Shown: in pieces, positions 14,252 to 40,192 of the stretch
Numbering within the stretch: the stretch's first letter is position 1
How the letters are laid out: the number at the start of each line of letters is the position of its first letter
Assembly: GCA_963704725.1 (NCBI GenBank)
Contig: OY969934.1
Span: 2,016,001-2,080,000 of the forward strand
From: an uncultured Actinomycetes bacterium
GTDB lineage: Bacteria > Actinomycetota > UBA4738 > HRBIN12
DNA length: 64,000 nucleotides
Direction: 5' to 3'
The notes under the pieces: model-generated
The model's database searches: none
What the model was told of the DNA's origin: nothing
Seen by the model: only the letters and a program-made list of their open reading frames with translations
Translations under genes and position numbers: made by a program

Positions 14252-14370
14252 TCCCGGCGGCGACCTACTCTCCCACCCAGTTGCCCGGGCAGTACCATCG
14301 GCGCTGGAGGGCTTAACTTCCGGGTTCGAGATGGGACCGGGTGTTTCCCCTCCGCCATGACCACCGAAAC
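14252..14370 (-). rRNA. rrf: 5S rRNA
   Basis: CCCATCTCGAACCCGGAAGTTAAG and GGGAGAGTAGGTCGCCGCC motifs with complementary ends; ends approximate. Confidence 0.97.
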
Positions 14371-14455
14371 GGAGCTTCCCGATCGCTCGGGACGTCCGAT
14401 TGGGGGCGCGGCCCCCGAGCAGAGCTCGGGAACTGCGATAGCGAGCGCGAGCAAT

Positions 14456-17559
<3,104 letters not shown>

Positions 17560-17583
17560 GTAGATGCTCGCGCTCGCTATCGA

Positions 17584-17596
17584 GTTCTCAAGGTGC
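17584..17596 (-). promoter_or_regulatory. boxA-like antitermination element in the 16S-23S spacer (no tRNA in spacer)
   Basis: GCACCTTGAGAAC, identical to the copy in the 16S leader (19496-19508); adjacent sequence is complementary to ~14430-14453 (23S processing stem). Confidence 0.7.
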
Positions 17597-17780
17597 CCGG
17601 GAGCTCGCACCCCCAGAGCTGAACAGTGTGCCCGGCCGGCTCCCCCGGGTCGCCTCGCCGTTCGCCCCCTGAGGGGGTACTAGCGCGAGGGCGATCCGAG
17701 CTCGCCCGCCGAATAGCCAGTGCACCGACCTGGAGTCTCCGAGGCCGACCGAACGGCCGGCCTCGGGGTGCCAAGTGGCT

Positions 17781-19316
<1,536 letters not shown>

Positions 19317-19704: not shown

Positions 19705-22353
19705 TCAGGCCTCGTCCGTCAGGTTCGACCAGAGGGCCGCCTGGCCGACGAAGAGCCACTCGCGCTCCGCGTCCCCCCGGGAGAACGGGTTCGTCGCGAG
19801 CGCGGCGTACCGGCTCCCCACGGTGGTGTCCCCGTGGAGCGCCATCGGGGCCCCGGCCGCCGCCGGGTTCCGGTCGAGCCACAGGCCCGCCACGAACATC
19901 GCCGTCGTGTCGGGGAGGTACTGACCGTCCACCGACGCGCTCGTCGGCACCGCCGAGAAGAACGTCACGTTCGACGGCAGGTACAGGTAGTCCTGGGCGG
20001 TGAATCCTCCGGTGAGCGGACCGTTCAGTCCCACGTTGTCCCACCTCGCGATGCCGCCTCCCGCGGAATCGCTCGTCTGCGTGAGCGGGGTCGTGACGAG
20101 CCCCGCGCCGGTCAGGAAGTTGAAGTTGTTCCCCGACTGGCTGGTTCCGATGTACCCACCGCCACGGGCGAAGAAGGCCTGCAGTCGGTCCCTCGCGACG
20201 GTGTTGGCGACGGAGGGGTAGTTCTGGCCGGCGTTGTAGATCACGTCGAAGCCGAGCAGGGGGTCGTCGGCGGCGTTCTGGAGCGAGTCGGTGCCGTTGA
20301 CCGTCGAGACGAAGGCCGTGTCCGGTCCGAAGATCTGCTGCAGCGACCACATCGTGTCGTTCACCACGGGCGCCGAGCTGTTCACCAGGACCGCGACCTT
20401 CGGAGCCTCGTCGACTTGGGTGGTGGCCGGCTTCGGCCCCGTGTGCGGCTCGAACACGATCCCCGCGGCCTGGCCCGCGGTCCTGAGCGCAGCGACCGTG
20501 GCGGCGTCGGCGGGGAAGATCAGCGAGCCGGCCGGGCTGGCGCCCGAGACCTCGGCGATCTCCGCGTCGATGCCACTGCGGAGGAGATCAAGGACCGCAC
20601 GAACCTCGGAGGGACCCCGGAGGGTCAGGGAGTACCAGGTCGGCTTTCCCTTCGAGCCCCCCACGCCCCCCGTCAGCGGGTTCGGCGTCGCCTGCGCCTG
20701 GGTGGTGGGGTTGAAGGAGGCGCTCCCCGCCGGGATCTCGACGACATCGGCCCCCCAGAGCTGCCCGTGGCTCCAGGCGCCCGGAGGAGCGTACAGCTGG
20801 CTGATCCGATCCGAGATGTCCTGGCCGGCATCGAGCGCCGTGAGGGCGAGTCCCCGGAAGGGCTGATCCATCCAGACGACGTACGAGCTCTTCGGGAACG
20901 TGATCCTCCCGGACTTCCAGTTGTAGGCCTGCTTGATGGTCTCGACCTGGATCCCGTTGTCGAGCAACCACTGCACCAGCCTGTTCGCCTCGGCATCGGA
21001 CCGCTGGCCGGAACCGTCGAACGGGATCACGAAGGCCTTCGGATACGGAACCATCCAGTTGTGCTGATCCTCCGTGAAGCCGCGCGCCGCGATGTCGGGG
21101 TCGTCACAGCAGTCGGGACGGGCCGCGCCCGTGACGCCGCGGCGGAAGATCTCGAGCTGGTCGTGAAGGATCGGGTTGCGGTGCTCGATCCAGAAGGCGG
21201 CCGACGAGTAGAAGCCGACGTACTGGGCCCGCTTCGACCCGAAGCGTCCGTCGCAGCCCGCGCCGCTGCTGCACATCTCCAGGGTCGAGCTGTCGACGCC
21301 GTAGAAGGCCATGTAGGTCTGGGTGTAGAAGGGACCCCAGTCGTCCCACCCCTCGGCGTAGGCCGGGCCGACGGGCGGGGTGTCGTCCGCGTCCGCGTTC
21401 CACTGATTCACGGGACGGGTGATGCCCATGCCCACGGCGGCCAGCGCCGCCTCGTTCGCATCCAGCCTGGGCTGGTTCCACCGCACGAACAGGTCGTAGT
21501 CGATGCCGGGGTTGTGCGGCTTGGTCAGCCCATCGATCAGCGTCGGGTTCACGTACCCGTGCATCGCGAGGCCAACCGGAGCGAGCCACTGCTGCTGGCG
21601 CGCGATCTCGTTGCGGATCTCCGACTGGGACTGCACGAGCAGGTCGCGGTTCATATCGAAGCTGTTGCCGTTGGATCGTTGCCCGATGAACCGGCCGTCC
21701 GGGTTCTCCGTGGGGACCACGACCAGGATCGCGTGATCCAGCAGGCCGTCCACGGTCGAGTTGACGCCGTACGGCGTGGTGACCAGGTCCCGGATCACCT
21801 GCATGATGGCGTCGGTTCCCTCTTCCTCGTTCCCGTGGATGTTGGCCTCGATGAAGATCGGGATCTTGACCTCGTCCCCCCACTGCGCCAGCAACGCCTG
21901 CCCGGCCGTGGGGTCGGTCAGCATGATCGAGCGGAGCTGAACCCACCGGTCGTAGTCACGCTGCTGCTCGGGGGTCTCGAGGGCGTTGACCACCACCTCG
22001 TACTGATCGAATCCCAGAGCCGACTGCCCGATGACCGAGTAGGACATCCGGGTGGGGATGCCGGCGTTCGCCGCTTCGGTCTGGAACCCGTCGAGGGTGC
22101 ATTGGATGGCCTCGAGCGGTATCAGGGCCAGCGGTGGTCCCTGCTGGTTCGCGATGTTCGATCCGGGAGCGGCGTCGGCGCACCACGCCTCGCCGTAGGT
22201 CGGGCCGAGGCCCGCGGAGATCGGGTTGCCGTCGAACGGCGGGGCGAGCTGGGCGCTCGCCGAGACCGGGACCATCAGCGCGGGGATCGCGAGCGCCAAG
22301 GCGGTCACGAGCGTCAACCAGGCCCTTGACGAGCGACTGACCGGTCGTTGCAC
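19705..22353 (-). CDS. Secreted M14 zinc carboxypeptidase-family protein with C-terminal glutamine-amidotransferase-like domain
   Basis: SD GGAGG before GTG 22353; signal peptide ending ASA-Q; IHGNEEEG, NPDG, RSN, DMNRD, MHG. Confidence 0.88.
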   Translation of the reverse strand: MQRPVSRSSRAWLTLVTALALAIPALMVPVSASAQLAPPFDGNPISAGLGPTYGEAWCADAAPGSNIANQQGPPLALIPLEAIQCTLDGFQTEAANAGIPTRMSYSVIGQSALGFDQYEVVVNALETPEQQRDYDRWVQLRSIMLTDPTAGQALLAQWGDEVKIPIFIEANIHGNEEEGTDAIMQVIRDLVTTPYGVNSTVDGLLDHAILVVVPTENPDGRFIGQRSNGNSFDMNRDLLVQSQSEIRNEIARQQQWLAPVGLAMHGYVNPTLIDGLTKPHNPGIDYDLFVRWNQPRLDANEAALAAVGMGITRPVNQWNADADDTPPVGPAYAEGWDDWGPFYTQTYMAFYGVDSSTLEMCSSGAGCDGRFGSKRAQYVGFYSSAAFWIEHRNPILHDQLEIFRRGVTGAARPDCCDDPDIAARGFTEDQHNWMVPYPKAFVIPFDGSGQRSDAEANRLVQWLLDNGIQVETIKQAYNWKSGRITFPKSSYVVWMDQPFRGLALTALDAGQDISDRISQLYAPPGAWSHGQLWGADVVEIPAGSASFNPTTQAQATPNPLTGGVGGSKGKPTWYSLTLRGPSEVRAVLDLLRSGIDAEIAEVSGASPAGSLIFPADAATVAALRTAGQAAGIVFEPHTGPKPATTQVDEAPKVAVLVNSSAPVVNDTMWSLQQIFGPDTAFVSTVNGTDSLQNAADDPLLGFDVIYNAGQNYPSVANTVARDRLQAFFARGGGYIGTSQSGNNFNFLTGAGLVTTPLTQTSDSAGGGIARWDNVGLNGPLTGGFTAQDYLYLPSNVTFFSAVPTSASVDGQYLPDTTAMFVAGLWLDRNPAAAGAPMALHGDTTVGSRYAALATNPFSRGDAEREWLFVGQAALWSNLTDEA

Positions 22354-22551
22354 GGAGCTACACCTCCCCTGTCGTGGACGAGCGCGAGCGGAGTGAGCGG
22401 TGACGACGGGGGGGACCTCGCCCCGCGCGGACCACCGGCCGCGAGGGGGCGGCGGGGTGCGCGGCAACGCGATGCACCACGGGCGGGTCCTTGGACGCGG
22501 ACGAGGGCTATCCAAGCCGAATCCGACCCGTCCGGTCAAATTGCGATCGCC

Positions 22552-23763
22552 TCAGATGAGGCGCACGAACCTCCGGCGCCCCACCGCGAGCGTGGCGCCG
22601 CGAAGCTCCTCGATCGGCATCTCCAGCCCCGGGTCGGAGAAGGGCTCGCCGTCCAGGCTGACGCCCCGGCCCTCGATCTGCCGTCGGGCATCCCCGTTCG
22701 AGGCGGCGAGGCCGAGCAAGACCAGGAGGCGCGGGAGCCACACCCGCCCATCGACGATCGCGTCCGGCGGGACCCGGGCCTCCTCCACCTGGTCGGGGAT
22801 CCGGTGCTCGCGGTGCACGGCGTCGAACCGCTCCTCGGCGCCCGCTCCGGCCCCGGGGCCGTGGTACAGGTCCACGACCTCCCGGGCCAGGCGCCGCTTC
22901 TCCGCCCAGGGATCGAGCGAGCCGTCGCCCAGACCCGCCTTCACGGCGGTCCACGCCTGCCGGTCGCCGAAGAAGTCCAGCGTGAGTCGCCGGTACTCCG
23001 GGATCAGCTCGTCGCGGACCCGGGTGAGCTTGCCGAACATCTCGTCCGGATCCTCGGTGATCCCGATGTAGTTGCCGAGGGACTGGCTCATCTTCTGCAC
23101 GCCGTCGGTCCCCACGAGCAGGGGCATCGTCATCGCCACCTGGGGGCTCTGCCCATGCTCGCGCTGCAGGTCCCGGCCGAGCAGCAGGTTGAAGAGCTGG
23201 TCGCTGCCGCCGAGCTCCACGTCCGCCTCCACGGCGACCGAGTCCATCGCCTGCAACAGCGGGTAGAGGAACTCCATGATCGAGATGGGCCGGGTCTCCG
23301 CGTACCGTTTCGCGAAGTCGTCGCGCTCGAGCATCCGAGCCACCGTGGTCGAGGCCGTGAGCTTCAGGACCGCCTCCATGTCGAGCGGCTCGAGCCACTC
23401 GGAGTTGTGGCGGACCTCGGTCCGCTCGCGGTCCAGGATCAGCCAGAACTGGTCCAGGAGGCGGCCGGCGTACTCCAGGACCACGTCCTTGGGCAGGCGG
23501 GGACGCGTCTCGCTCCGTCCCGATGGATCCCCGACGCGCGCCGTGAAGTCTCCAACGATGAGCACCGCCACGTGTCCGGCGTCCTGGAACTGCCGGAGCT
23601 TGCGCAGGACGACGGCCCACCCCAGCGTCACCGCCGGGGCCGTGGGGTCCAGGCCGAGCTTCACCCGGAGGGGACGGCCCAGGGCCAGCTTCTCGTCGAA
23701 CTCCCAGAGGGGGCGAGCGTCCGCCACCTCGGCGAGTAGTGTTTGGCGGTCGTCGGGACCCAT
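22552..23763 (-). CDS. tyrS: Tyrosine--tRNA ligase with atypical signature motifs
   Basis: VKLGLDPTAP, GDFTARVGDPSG, EFLYPLLQAMDS, GGSDQLFN, C-terminal S4 domain ending VGRRRF. Confidence 0.95.
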   Translation of the reverse strand: MGPDDRQTLLAEVADARPLWEFDEKLALGRPLRVKLGLDPTAPAVTLGWAVVLRKLRQFQDAGHVAVLIVGDFTARVGDPSGRSETRPRLPKDVVLEYAGRLLDQFWLILDRERTEVRHNSEWLEPLDMEAVLKLTASTTVARMLERDDFAKRYAETRPISIMEFLYPLLQAMDSVAVEADVELGGSDQLFNLLLGRDLQREHGQSPQVAMTMPLLVGTDGVQKMSQSLGNYIGITEDPDEMFGKLTRVRDELIPEYRRLTLDFFGDRQAWTAVKAGLGDGSLDPWAEKRRLAREVVDLYHGPGAGAGAEERFDAVHREHRIPDQVEEARVPPDAIVDGRVWLPRLLVLLGLAASNGDARRQIEGRGVSLDGEPFSDPGLEMPIEELRGATLAVGRRRFVRLI

Positions 23764-23818: not shown

Positions 23819-26281
23819 ATGGCCGGGCGTTCTCGCGCGACGTTCGTCGCGATGCTGGTGATCTGTGCCCTCGCGGCGGCCGGTTGCAACCTGCCCACGC
23901 TGCACGAGGCGCGCCAGGAGGCCGCCGCCCTCCCCCAGACCTCGTTCCTGTACGCGGCCGACGGGACGCTGATCACCCGGCTCCACGCCGGCGAGGACCG
24001 CGTCGTGGTGCGAGCCTCGCGGATCCCCGACGTCATGCGCAACGCCGTGATCGCCATCGAGGACCAGCGCTTCTACGACCATCGGGGGGTCGACCTGCGG
24101 GCCCTCCTGCGGGCCGCGTACATCGACGCCACGACCGGCCGCGTGGTCGAGGGCGGCTCCACGATCACGCAGCAGCTCGTGAAGCAGATCTACGTGGGCG
24201 GCGAGGAGTCCCTCGACCGCAAGATCCGCGAGGCCTACCTGGCCTGGCAGATGGAGCATCGGTTCACGAAGGAGCAGATCCTCACGAAGTACCTGAACAC
24301 CGTGTACTTCGGCAACGGCGCCTACGGGATCATGGCCGCAGCCCGCACCTACTTCGACGAGGACCCGATGGGGCTCACGCTCCCCCAGGCCGCGTTCCTG
24401 GCCGGGGCGATCGCCGCTCCCGTCAGGTACGACCCGGTGACGCATCCGGGGCGGGCGCGCAACCGCCGCAACCGGGTGCTGGCCCGGATGCTCGACCTGG
24501 CGATGATCGATCAGACCGCCCACGACGCCGCCATGGCGGACCCGCTCGAGCTGGACATGAACCGCGAGGAGAGCCAGCCGTATCTGGCCCCGTACTTCGT
24601 CGACTACTTCAAGGAGTGGTTCCTGTCGAACCCGACCTTCGGGGCGACGCCCCAGGAGCGTTACCAGCTCCTGTTCGAGGGGGGACTGCGGATCGTGACG
24701 ACGATCGACCCCCGCCTGCAGCACGCCGCCGAGCGGGCCATCGACTCCGTGCTGCTGTACAAGACCGACCCCTACGCCGCGGTCACGGCGATCGACCCGC
24801 GGACCGGGTTCGTCCGCGCCATGGTGGGTGGCCGGGACTACTGGGACGAGAACGACCGGTTCGCCCGGATCAACCTCGCAACCGGGGGCAGCACGGGCCG
24901 GCAGGCGGGGTCGGCGTTCAAGCCGTTCGCCCTCGTCGCGGCGCTCGAGAGCGGGCTCACCCGTTCCACCCCCCTGAACGGCTCGGTCGCACACATCCCC
25001 CTGCAGAACGGCACGTTCTGGGATCCGCACAACGCCGAGGGCAGCGGCGTGGGAACGATCTCGCTCGAGTCGGCCACGGTGAACTCCGTCAACGTGGCCT
25101 ACGCGAACCTCGAGTCTCTGATGGGAGGCGGCGACCCCTACGTCGGCGCCCAGAAGCTCGTGGATGTCGCGCTGCGGATGGGCATCCGGTGCTGCCCTCG
25201 GACGACGGAGCCGGGGACGCCGCTCGCCGCCGTGCCCGCCGCCGTCCTCGGGGTCAACGAGGTGAGCACGTTGGAGATGGCCTCCGCGTACGGGACGCTC
25301 GCGTTCGGCGGCGCGCACGTGCAGCCCACGCCCGTCATCAGCGTGACGACCAGCGACGGCACGCCGCTCTATCAGGCCACCGCCCATCCGAAGCAGGTCC
25401 TGGACCCCGCGATCGCGTCCGAGGCCGTCGACATCCTCAAGGGCGTCGTCGCGCACGGCACGGGGACGGGGGCGAACATCGGGCGTCCCCAGTTCGGCAA
25501 GACCGGGACCGCCCAGAACGCCAGCGACGCGTGGTTCATGGGTGCGGTCCCCCAGCTCGTGACCGCCGTGTGGGTGGGCTTCCCCCAAGGCCAGGTCCCG
25601 ATGTGCTGCGGCAACGTGCGCATCTCGACCGTCTACGGCGGCACGTGGCCGGCCTCGATCTGGCGCGCCTTCATGTCGGTGGCCACCGCGCGCATGCTCG
25701 TTCGGGAGTTCCCCACGGCGCCCGCCGTCCAGTACGTCACGCTGCGGGTCGACGTGACGCAGGGATGCCTGGCGAACCAGTACACGCCGCCTCAGGACAT
25801 CGACACGTTCCAGTACGTGGCCGGGACCGAGCCGTCCCTCGACACCTGCACCCAACCGACGTCCTACCAGGAGCTCACGGTGCCCTCGGTGATCGGGCTC
25901 CTCAAGCAGACCGCGATCTCGACCCTGCACGCCGCGGGCTTCAACGTCGCCATCGAGTACGAAACCTCCAACGAACGCGACGACACCGTGATCGACCAGC
26001 GTCCGGCGGGCGGCAGCCGCCTGATCCAGACCGGAACGGTCACGATCACGGTGGCACGGGGAGCGCCGGAGCTCGTGGACGTGCCGAACGTCGTCGGGAT
26101 GGGGCAGGCGGCCGCCACCGCCACGCTCCGCGCGGCCGGGTTCGAGGTCGCCGTGGTCCGAAAGCAGGAATGCGACCCGGCCGACCCCTCGTGCCTCTAC
26201 CGGCCCGGAATCGTCTGGGCCCAGCAACCCACCGGTCAGGCCGAGCCCGGCGCCACCGTCACGATCAGCGTGAACCCGTAG
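23819..26281 (+). CDS. Class A penicillin-binding protein (transglycosylase/transpeptidase) with two PASTA domains
   Basis: EDQRFYDHRG, GGSTITQQ, RKIRE, SAFK, SVN, KTGT; two VP(S/N)V(I/V)G repeats. Confidence 0.95.
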   Translation: MAGRSRATFVAMLVICALAAAGCNLPTLHEARQEAAALPQTSFLYAADGTLITRLHAGEDRVVVRASRIPDVMRNAVIAIEDQRFYDHRGVDLRALLRAAYIDATTGRVVEGGSTITQQLVKQIYVGGEESLDRKIREAYLAWQMEHRFTKEQILTKYLNTVYFGNGAYGIMAAARTYFDEDPMGLTLPQAAFLAGAIAAPVRYDPVTHPGRARNRRNRVLARMLDLAMIDQTAHDAAMADPLELDMNREESQPYLAPYFVDYFKEWFLSNPTFGATPQERYQLLFEGGLRIVTTIDPRLQHAAERAIDSVLLYKTDPYAAVTAIDPRTGFVRAMVGGRDYWDENDRFARINLATGGSTGRQAGSAFKPFALVAALESGLTRSTPLNGSVAHIPLQNGTFWDPHNAEGSGVGTISLESATVNSVNVAYANLESLMGGGDPYVGAQKLVDVALRMGIRCCPRTTEPGTPLAAVPAAVLGVNEVSTLEMASAYGTLAFGGAHVQPTPVISVTTSDGTPLYQATAHPKQVLDPAIASEAVDILKGVVAHGTGTGANIGRPQFGKTGTAQNASDAWFMGAVPQLVTAVWVGFPQGQVPMCCGNVRISTVYGGTWPASIWRAFMSVATARMLVREFPTAPAVQYVTLRVDVTQGCLANQYTPPQDIDTFQYVAGTEPSLDTCTQPTSYQELTVPSVIGLLKQTAISTLHAAGFNVAIEYETSNERDDTVIDQRPAGGSRLIQTGTVTITVARGAPELVDVPNVVGMGQAAATATLRAAGFEVAVVRKQECDPADPSCLYRPGIVWAQQPTGQAEPGATVTISVNP

Positions 26282-40057: not shown

Positions 40058-40064
40058 GGCGCCG

Positions 40065-40192
40065 CCCGTCCTCTCCCATCCCGACTCTCACGGTCGGTCC
40101 CGGAATCTCACCGGATCCACCCCTGAGCGGCTCCCAGGGGGTCGCGGACTGTCACCGCCGGTGGGGAGTTGCACCCCGCCCCGAAGACAGGC
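40065..40192 (-). ncRNA. FMN riboswitch (RFN element)
   Basis: TCGGGGCGGGGTGCAACTCCCCACCGGCGGT...AGTCCGCGA...GATCCGGTGAGATTCCGGGACCGACCGT..AGTCGGGATGGGAGAG upstream of ribD; TATACT -10 at 40205-40210. Confidence 0.95.

Follow-up and report, generated by a model that had tools for sequence, protein, structure and literature searches.

In the window, a stretch of 64,000 nucleotides from the genome of an uncultured Actinomycetes bacterium from soil (assembly GCA_963704725.1, contig OY969934.1, positions 2,016,001 to 2,080,000), the gene tyrS encodes a tyrosyl-tRNA synthetase (TyrRS) in which both class I signature motifs are rewritten, with TLGW in place of HIGH and KMSQS in place of KMSKS. Our analysis suggests, with a probability of about 0.8, that this protein is the single, essential and catalytically active TyrRS of the organism, belonging to the Thermus-like bacterial type, and that a connected group of residues in its active site has changed together, as one block. 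The canonical His52, His55, Thr107, Tyr108 and Lys235 (Thermus thermophilus numbering) would have given way to Thr46, Trp49, Arg101, Leu102 and Gln227, a swap accompanied by repacking along the helix formed by residues 92 to 106. The TLGW/KMSQS form of TyrRS (hereafter referred to as the W type, or W/Q) is real and conserved and, as far as our literature search reached, undescribed.

The 403-residue translation of tyrS, which contains DPTAPAVTLGWAV, matches the tyrosine–tRNA ligase equivalog model TIGR00234 with 296.3 bits against a cut-off of 113.8, spanning positions 25–403 of 406, and PF00579, the Rossmann-fold catalytic domain of tryptophanyl- and tyrosyl-tRNA synthetases, with an E-value of 4e-65. 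A longer open reading frame (ORF) starting at 24057 was ruled out as tyrS, homologues of 401–404 residues covering 100% of the 403-residue form. The best solved relative in the phmmer alignment is the T. thermophilus TyrRS (PDB 1h3e; E = 2e-101), and the same structure is the top Foldseek match (1h3e_A, TMq 0.86) of an AlphaFold2 (AF2) model built from a 60-row alignment (predicted local distance difference test (pLDDT) 93, predicted template modelling score (pTM) 0.86). The tyrosine-binding residues D79, Y167, Q171 and D174 and the GGSDQ motif are aligned and conserved; Y167, D174, G185 and Q189 are invariant and K35 nearly invariant across the 60 rows. The C terminus aligns to residues 330–428 of 1h3e, although its Pfam S4 score stays under the threshold (17.7 versus 22.8 bits). 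Judged by homology and architecture, membership of the TyrRS family stands, and the equivalog model does not require the HIGH signature.

The alignment with 1h3e sets HLGH opposite TLGW and KMSKS opposite KMSQS. Neither class-wide signature is recovered in the protein: histidine is absent from positions 1 and 4 of the HIGH motif, and the second lysine is absent from the KMSKS motif, of which K224, M225, S226 and S228 are retained. The substituted residues T46, W49 and Q227 are encoded by ACG, TGG and CAG. TLGW is found in 120 of the 120 nearest homologues (72–79% identity), 114 of them with KMSQS and six with KMGQS, and a base-call error is therefore excluded. A previous reading of this DNA (the sequence-only reading) had reported the two motifs at positions that prove exact on the translation, and its statements that the tyrosine pocket and the S4 domain are kept are borne out by the alignments described above. 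It had also argued that the changes are multi-nucleotide and so unlikely to be base-call errors; the conclusion is upheld by the homologues, and the argument holds for the HIGH motif, where His to Thr and His to Trp require two to three base changes each, but not for the KMSKS motif, where Lys to Gln requires only one.

Across the genome, which is a single contig of 3.45 Mb and 95% complete, two genes belong to PF00579/TIGR00234, namely tyrS and the gene for the tryptophanyl-tRNA synthetase (TrpRS) at C1:3.239 Mb. The check for a second tyrS proposed in the sequence-only reading was thus carried out, and the profile search of this one-contig, 95% complete genome found no second gene of the TyrRS family. 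A single tRNATyr(GUA) of 83 nucleotides is encoded, with a long variable arm, a G1–C72 pair and A73. NG86 estimates of the ratio of nonsynonymous to synonymous substitution rates (dN/dS) are 0.12–0.33 for 15 pairs within the W-type clade and 0.15–0.32 for six canonical pairs, and 0.29–0.38 between the types. By this measure, purifying selection on W-type tyrS is the same as on its canonical relatives, and its product is therefore a housekeeping enzyme, neither in decay nor a paralog put to another use.

The motif pair is widespread, as a survey of its distribution revealed. Among 41 genomes of the same order, this one included, 21 have the W type (one of them, G013, as a fragment that shows TLGW only), 15 have a lysine type (ten HLGH/KMSKS and five TLGH/KMSKS), and the remaining five, with completeness of 69–90%, have no detected TyrRS; none of the 41 has two. 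These order-level counts, and the trees described below, take in the loci L006, L034 and L033 from the unpublished genomes G011, G029 and G037. Both types occur in four of the eight families of the order (f1, f2, f6 and f7), at the same locus flanked by a gene for a class A penicillin-binding protein (PBP1A). Outside the order, TLGW/KMSQS is present in metagenome-assembled genomes (MAGs) of Acidimicrobiia (L064, L069 and L091), and further natural variants comprise HLGF/KMSKS (Acidimicrobiia), HLGW/KMSQS, HLGY/KMGQS, HVGR/KMSSS and HIGR/KMSTS. TyrRSs of Bipolaricaulota and Thermotogae combine TLGH with (S/A)MSQT, which is a different, equally unstudied rewrite; in the MAG loci L084, L087, L089 and L114, where TLGH stands with SMSQT or AMSQT, both KMSKS lysines are lost and the fourth-position histidine is retained. 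A full-text literature search, with article supplements outside its scope, returned no paper on KMSQS, no use of TLGW as a synthetase motif (unrelated senses only), and, in the literature on TyrRS motif variants, nothing on the TLGW/KMSQS form. The sequence-only reading had regarded a motif pair that is both widespread and already characterised as grounds for abandoning it; the pair is widespread, but the literature gives no sign of characterisation.

The two motifs change together with a third site. We compared 226 distinct sequences that are the best matches to the W/Q query, and whose counts are no estimates of prevalence. All 51 rows with Trp or Tyr at position 49 have Gln227, and none has Lys227 or Tyr102; among the other 175 rows, Gln227 occurs in four, Lys227 in 169 and Tyr102 in 163. 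Residue 102 in the 51 rows is Leu (31), Val (14), Cys (2), Ile (2), Arg (1) or Met (1), and W49 and Q227 occur together in 50 of 50 W rows. In a FastTree phylogeny, three of three independent pairs on supported branches change in the same direction. Intermediate forms are also represented in the set, as TLGH/KMSKS (11), HLGF/KMSKS (9) and HLGW/KMSQS (4). On this covariation, the motif changes are one coupled set that varies three ways, not two separate motif changes.

Within the order, 22 columns separate the two types, all of them between residues 38 and 235, with T. thermophilus showing the canonical state. They include T41/S, A42/R, V45/L, W49/H, R101/T, L102/Y, F106/A, W107/G and Q227/K, in which L102 replaces a tyrosine conserved in canonical enzymes. 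In the AF2 model, TLGW lies at the start of the helix of residues 47–61, and positions 98, 101, 102 and 106 are helically spaced on the helix of residues 92–106, with position 109 just past its end. The model thus suggests that the interface between these two helices is repacked and that the repacking reaches the KMSKS loop. The mobile loop retains R83 and R87, and its residues 81–90 have a pLDDT of 64. R89 and K92 were considered as compensating basic residues and rejected as features of the lineage: HLGF/KMSKS enzymes share them, and the other W/Q lineages lack them. The idea that the second KMSKS lysine has disappeared throughout the genome was likewise discarded, as all six synthetases compared (IleRS, ValRS, LeuRS, MetRS, GluRS and CysRS) retain it.

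The tyrS tree divides by type and not by taxonomy. In a tree of 38 TyrRSs, a branch supported at 99/94 keeps all 23 W/Q rows to one side, and the order's canonical rows group in a clade (99/96). The whole tyrS gene rejects family f1 as one clade (log-likelihood difference 172.7; approximately unbiased test, p-AU 0.0002), whereas the tree of the adjacent penicillin-binding protein (PBP) gene tracks taxonomy, with f2 supported at 98 and f6 at 99. The type signal resides mainly in residues 1–112 and the KMSKS loop, and the C-terminal 141 columns yield an unresolved tree, with p = 0.10 for f1 as one clade. When the tree was built from a region fixed beforehand, which leaves out residues 1–112 and 223–231, it contained four type changes and placed the f2 genus g20 in a 99-supported clade with the f1 genera g1 and g5, f2 as one clade being borderline (p-AU 0.052). 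Removal of the 63 discriminating columns makes the types interleave, a result that is circular by construction. With all lineages included, W/Q appears at four or more separate points of the best trees; a single clade of all 19 W rows is not rejected (p-AU 0.26), and we therefore do not claim independent origins. Transfer or recombination of tyrS, or of its active-site module, is the reading of these trees that we tentatively prefer, and a network so tightly coupled may instead have changed in parallel, mimicking transfer, as an alternative source of the conflict between type and taxonomy.

How such an enzyme could work is suggested by comparison with the Bacillus stearothermophilus TyrRS, in which T40, K82, R86, K230, H45, H48 and K233 stabilise the transition state, as classic mutagenesis established. 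In an alignment with PDB 2ts1, where the B. stearothermophilus number equals the present number minus 1 in this region, except around the KMSKS loop, where the alignment has a local gap, Thr41, Arg83, Arg87 and Lys224 are the retained counterparts of T40, K82, R86 and K230, and H45, H48 and K233 are lost to Thr, Trp and Gln, respectively. Tyrosyl-adenylate (Tyr-AMP) would still be made from ATP. We propose that the lost charged donors are replaced by neutral hydrogen-bond donors (the Thr hydroxyl, the Trp indole NH and the Gln amide), probably with a bound cation in place of the lost lysine. Such an arrangement would be similar to the eukaryotic cytosolic TyrRS, where an aromatic residue at HIGH position 4 likewise goes with a missing second lysine. 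The sequence-only reading had suggested, as one of two options, that an essential enzyme activates tyrosine in an alternative way; the evidence is consistent with that view, and the mechanism itself is what we infer here. Several points weigh against our proposal. In the B. stearothermophilus enzyme, binding of the transition state depends strongly on each of H45 and K233, and losing both would be costly unless compensated. No universal compensating basic residue was found among the W/Q lineages. Contact among W49, L102 and Q227 would follow from covariation and helix periodicity only. As the AU test leaves room for a single origin of all W/Q sequences (p-AU 0.26), the covariation may count few independent events. 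The cation idea depends on one paper, in which potassium reportedly replaces the second KMSKS lysine in the human TyrRS. It is a long shot that the Thr/Trp/Leu/Gln set represents a second cation-assisted tyrosine activation in bacteria, convergent with that of the eukaryotic TyrRS and carried by an N-terminal module that recombines among soil Actinomycetota because it protects against natural antibiotics mimicking tyrosyl-adenylate. If true, an essential enzyme would exist here in a naturally resistant form, comparable to the IleRS2 with G/AXHH that the same genome carries.

Three other explanations bear on these observations. Apart from the three missing residues, namely the two HIGH histidines and the second KMSKS lysine, nothing speaks for a repurposed or inactive TyrRS paralog, with tyrosine charged by another enzyme, and we consider this reading, which the sequence-only reading had entertained, largely refuted and very improbable. 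The tyrosine pocket and the C-terminal tRNA-binding domain are retained, the gene occupies the orthologous PBP1A-flanked locus under canonical-like purifying selection, the only PF00579 genes are this one and that for TrpRS, and no second tyrS accompanies it in the 21 W-type relatives. A canonical tyrS beside a copy under relaxed selection, which the sequence-only reading had named as a refutation, is not what the 95% complete genome holds. The absence of relaxed selection and of a second copy is therefore where the paralog reading fails. Selectively neutral, compensated drift, fixed once in an ancestor and then inherited, with no mechanistic change that matters and no adaptive meaning, seems to us possible but unlikely. 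One clade for the 19 W rows is compatible with it, as are the equal dN/dS in both types, the intermediates among the 226 sequences and the departures of other class I enzymes of the genome from consensus (LeuRS SMSKT, MetRS KMSKT, CysRS KMAKS and TrpRS RMSTT). However, a strictly vertical history clashes with taxonomy and with the adjacent PBP tree, and the invariance of Trp and Gln in every W row indicates a constrained alternative state.

A third account would add to the coupled replacement that we favour: an adaptive, inhibitor-resistant TyrRS may have spread by transfer or recombination at the tyrS locus among soil Actinomycetota, under natural compounds that target TyrRS. It fits the occurrence of both types at one locus in four families and the split of the tyrS tree by type, against a PBP tree that follows taxonomy. 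TrpRS types that are only 33–36% identical inside one genus of the order also fit, as does a natural-product TyrRS inhibitor, SB-219383, named in the title of PDB entry 1jii. Moreover, the only IleRS of the genome is IleRS2-like with GIHH, a motif that PMC10485003 ties to mupirocin hyper-resistance. By contrast, the type signal is confined mainly to residues 1–112 and the KMSKS loop, the C-terminal columns do not reject the f1 clade, the tree lacking residues 1–112 and 223–231 has four label changes and only a borderline result for f2, and parallel change of a coupled network could resemble transfer. Inhibitor resistance, which the sequence-only reading had raised as a possibility, is doubtful in our view; the case for it consists of the patchy distribution and the analogy with IleRS2 (PMC10485003), which possibly point that way.

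The features of the locus are collected in Table 1. The statement in the sequence-only reading that the gene lies near rrn is correct. The PBP1A neighbour of tyrS is conserved beside both motif types in the relatives; the 944-residue M14 ORF adjoins tyrS in the closest relatives only (L006, L035 and L037–L039). No Rfam element was matched at or upstream of tyrS, and no consensus promoter or terminator between positions 22300 and 24100. Elsewhere in the window, a flavin mononucleotide (FMN) riboswitch (Rfam RF00050, 102.9 bits) is located at 40064–40192 on the minus strand.

Table 1 Features of the tyrS locus, in window coordinates (aa, amino acid residues of the tyrS product unless stated otherwise)
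Feature	Position	Strand	Basis or correspondence
tyrS, Thermus-like TyrRS, 403 aa; stop codon 22552-22554	22552..23763	(-)	TIGR00234, PF00579, 1h3e, Foldseek
TLGW replacing HIGH, aa 46-49	23617..23628	(-)	T46 = B. stearothermophilus H45; W49 = H48
Mobile loop GDPSGRSETRPRLPK, aa 78-92, equivalent to the loop with K82/R86 in B. stearothermophilus	23488..23529	(-)	2ts1 alignment
One face of helix 92-106 co-varying with the motifs (aa 98-107: Y98, R101, L102, F106, W107)	23443..23472	(-)	Discriminating columns, AF2 model
Conserved tyrosine pocket with YPLLQAMD (aa 167-174) and GGSDQ (aa 185-189)	23197..23265	(-)	1h3e alignment, 60-row alignment
KMSQS replacing KMSKS, aa 224-228	23080..23094	(-)	Q227 = B. 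stearothermophilus K233 / T. thermophilus K235
S4-like domain for tRNA binding at the C terminus, roughly aa 340-403	22555..22746	(-)	Alignment to 1h3e 330-428, E 3.7e-15; fold match to 1h3e
Class A penicillin-binding protein (transglycosylase, transpeptidase, two PASTA domains), divergent from tyrS; start approximate	23882..26281	(+)	Pfam; synteny in relatives
944-aa ORF with partial M14 carboxypeptidase domain (its aa 157-299), between tyrS and rrn	19705..22539	(-)	Pfam
rrn operon (16S, 23S, 5S), 3.2 kb downstream of tyrS, M14-peptidase gene between	14252..19316	(-)	Rfam

Other synthetases of the genome also deviate from the class I signatures. Its only IleRS (G000:C1:1853712-1855538, minus strand; locus L151) has GIHH for HIGH and a normal KMSKS, scores 869 bits with TIGR00392 and is MupA/MupB-like, of the IleRS2 type. 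The TrpRS (G000:C1:3238979-3239992, plus strand; L004/L115) has HLGN and RMSTT, with the second lysine absent; close relatives have KMSTT. Three very different TrpRS types occur in the order (relatives G001–G013 and others, L116–L144). In nine genomes of the same genus, the TrpRS is 33–36% identical to that of this genome and has HIGH or HVGH with KMSKS; six or more relatives from different parts of the order have this type some 25 kb away from tyrS, and here that copy is lost and the KMSTT type sits elsewhere. Synthetase replacement thus seems common in this group, to judge from these sequences. A link between TyrRS and TrpRS types was considered and dismissed: G009 combines a W/Q TyrRS with a HIGH/KMSKS TrpRS, and G021 a canonical TyrRS with a KMSTT TrpRS. 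Further deviations in this genome are HMGH/SMSKT in LeuRS, HIGH/KMSKT in MetRS, HIGN/KMAKS in CysRS and HVGN/PLSKR in GluRS. The ARAGORN calls ('54 genes found', 53 tallied) include a tRNA-SeC, and selenocysteine use is therefore probable.

Protein engineering of TyrRS made its HIGH histidines and KMSKS lysines the textbook example of how a transition state is stabilised, and a large natural group of housekeeping TyrRSs dispenses with three of these residues, Tyr102 always changing alongside. The group would offer enzymologists a natural multi-mutant cycle and would let the replacement of a lysine by a cation be tested in a bacterial scaffold. For antibacterial targeting, inhibitors that lean on the lost residues may not bind the W/Q TyrRS. 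Furthermore, the rule that a protein lacking either HIGH or KMSKS is a pseudo-enzyme would misjudge W/Q genes.

Among known systems, the T. thermophilus TyrRS (1h3e) resembles the present enzyme in architecture, length class, a near-gapless catalytic domain, the tyrosine pocket and a C-terminal domain that serves the long variable arm, and differs from it by HLGH to TLGW, KMSKS to KMSQS, T107-Y108 to R101-L102, A112-G113 to F106-W107 and R48 to A42. The B. stearothermophilus TrpRS, a sister enzyme within class Ic, has TIGN and an intact KMSKS; it thus shares threonine at HIGH position 1 with the TyrRS described here, and differs in the asparagine at position 4 and in its unaltered KMSKS. Of the eukaryotic cytosolic enzymes, the human TyrRS has 49HVAY52 with KMSSS (PMC7613620), and the yeast TyrRS has KMSAS and a Mg ion that bridges a phosphate to the Tyr56 and Tyr101 hydroxyls (PMC1934993). 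Both share with the W type an aromatic residue at HIGH position 4 and the loss of the second KMSKS lysine, matching W49 and Q227 (PMC7613620, PMC1934993). Unlike the W type, the human and yeast enzymes belong to the archaeal/eukaryotic lineage, have another tRNA-binding domain and keep the first histidine. Yeast Tyr56 we take, from its numbering, to be HIGH position 4. On this comparison, the resemblance to the eukaryotic TyrRS is convergent. IleRS2 is the nearest precedent, as its HIGH motif is rewritten although it, too, is a class I synthetase with a housekeeping role: Brkic et al. 2023 (PMC10485003) describe it as active with a natural G/AXHH motif that is widespread in bacteria, tolerated only in a particular structural background and linked to mupirocin hyper-resistance. 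It differs from the W-type TyrRS in being another enzyme with another rewrite, in which positions 1 and 3 are swapped, and in that the antibiotic link has been demonstrated for IleRS2 (PMC10485003).
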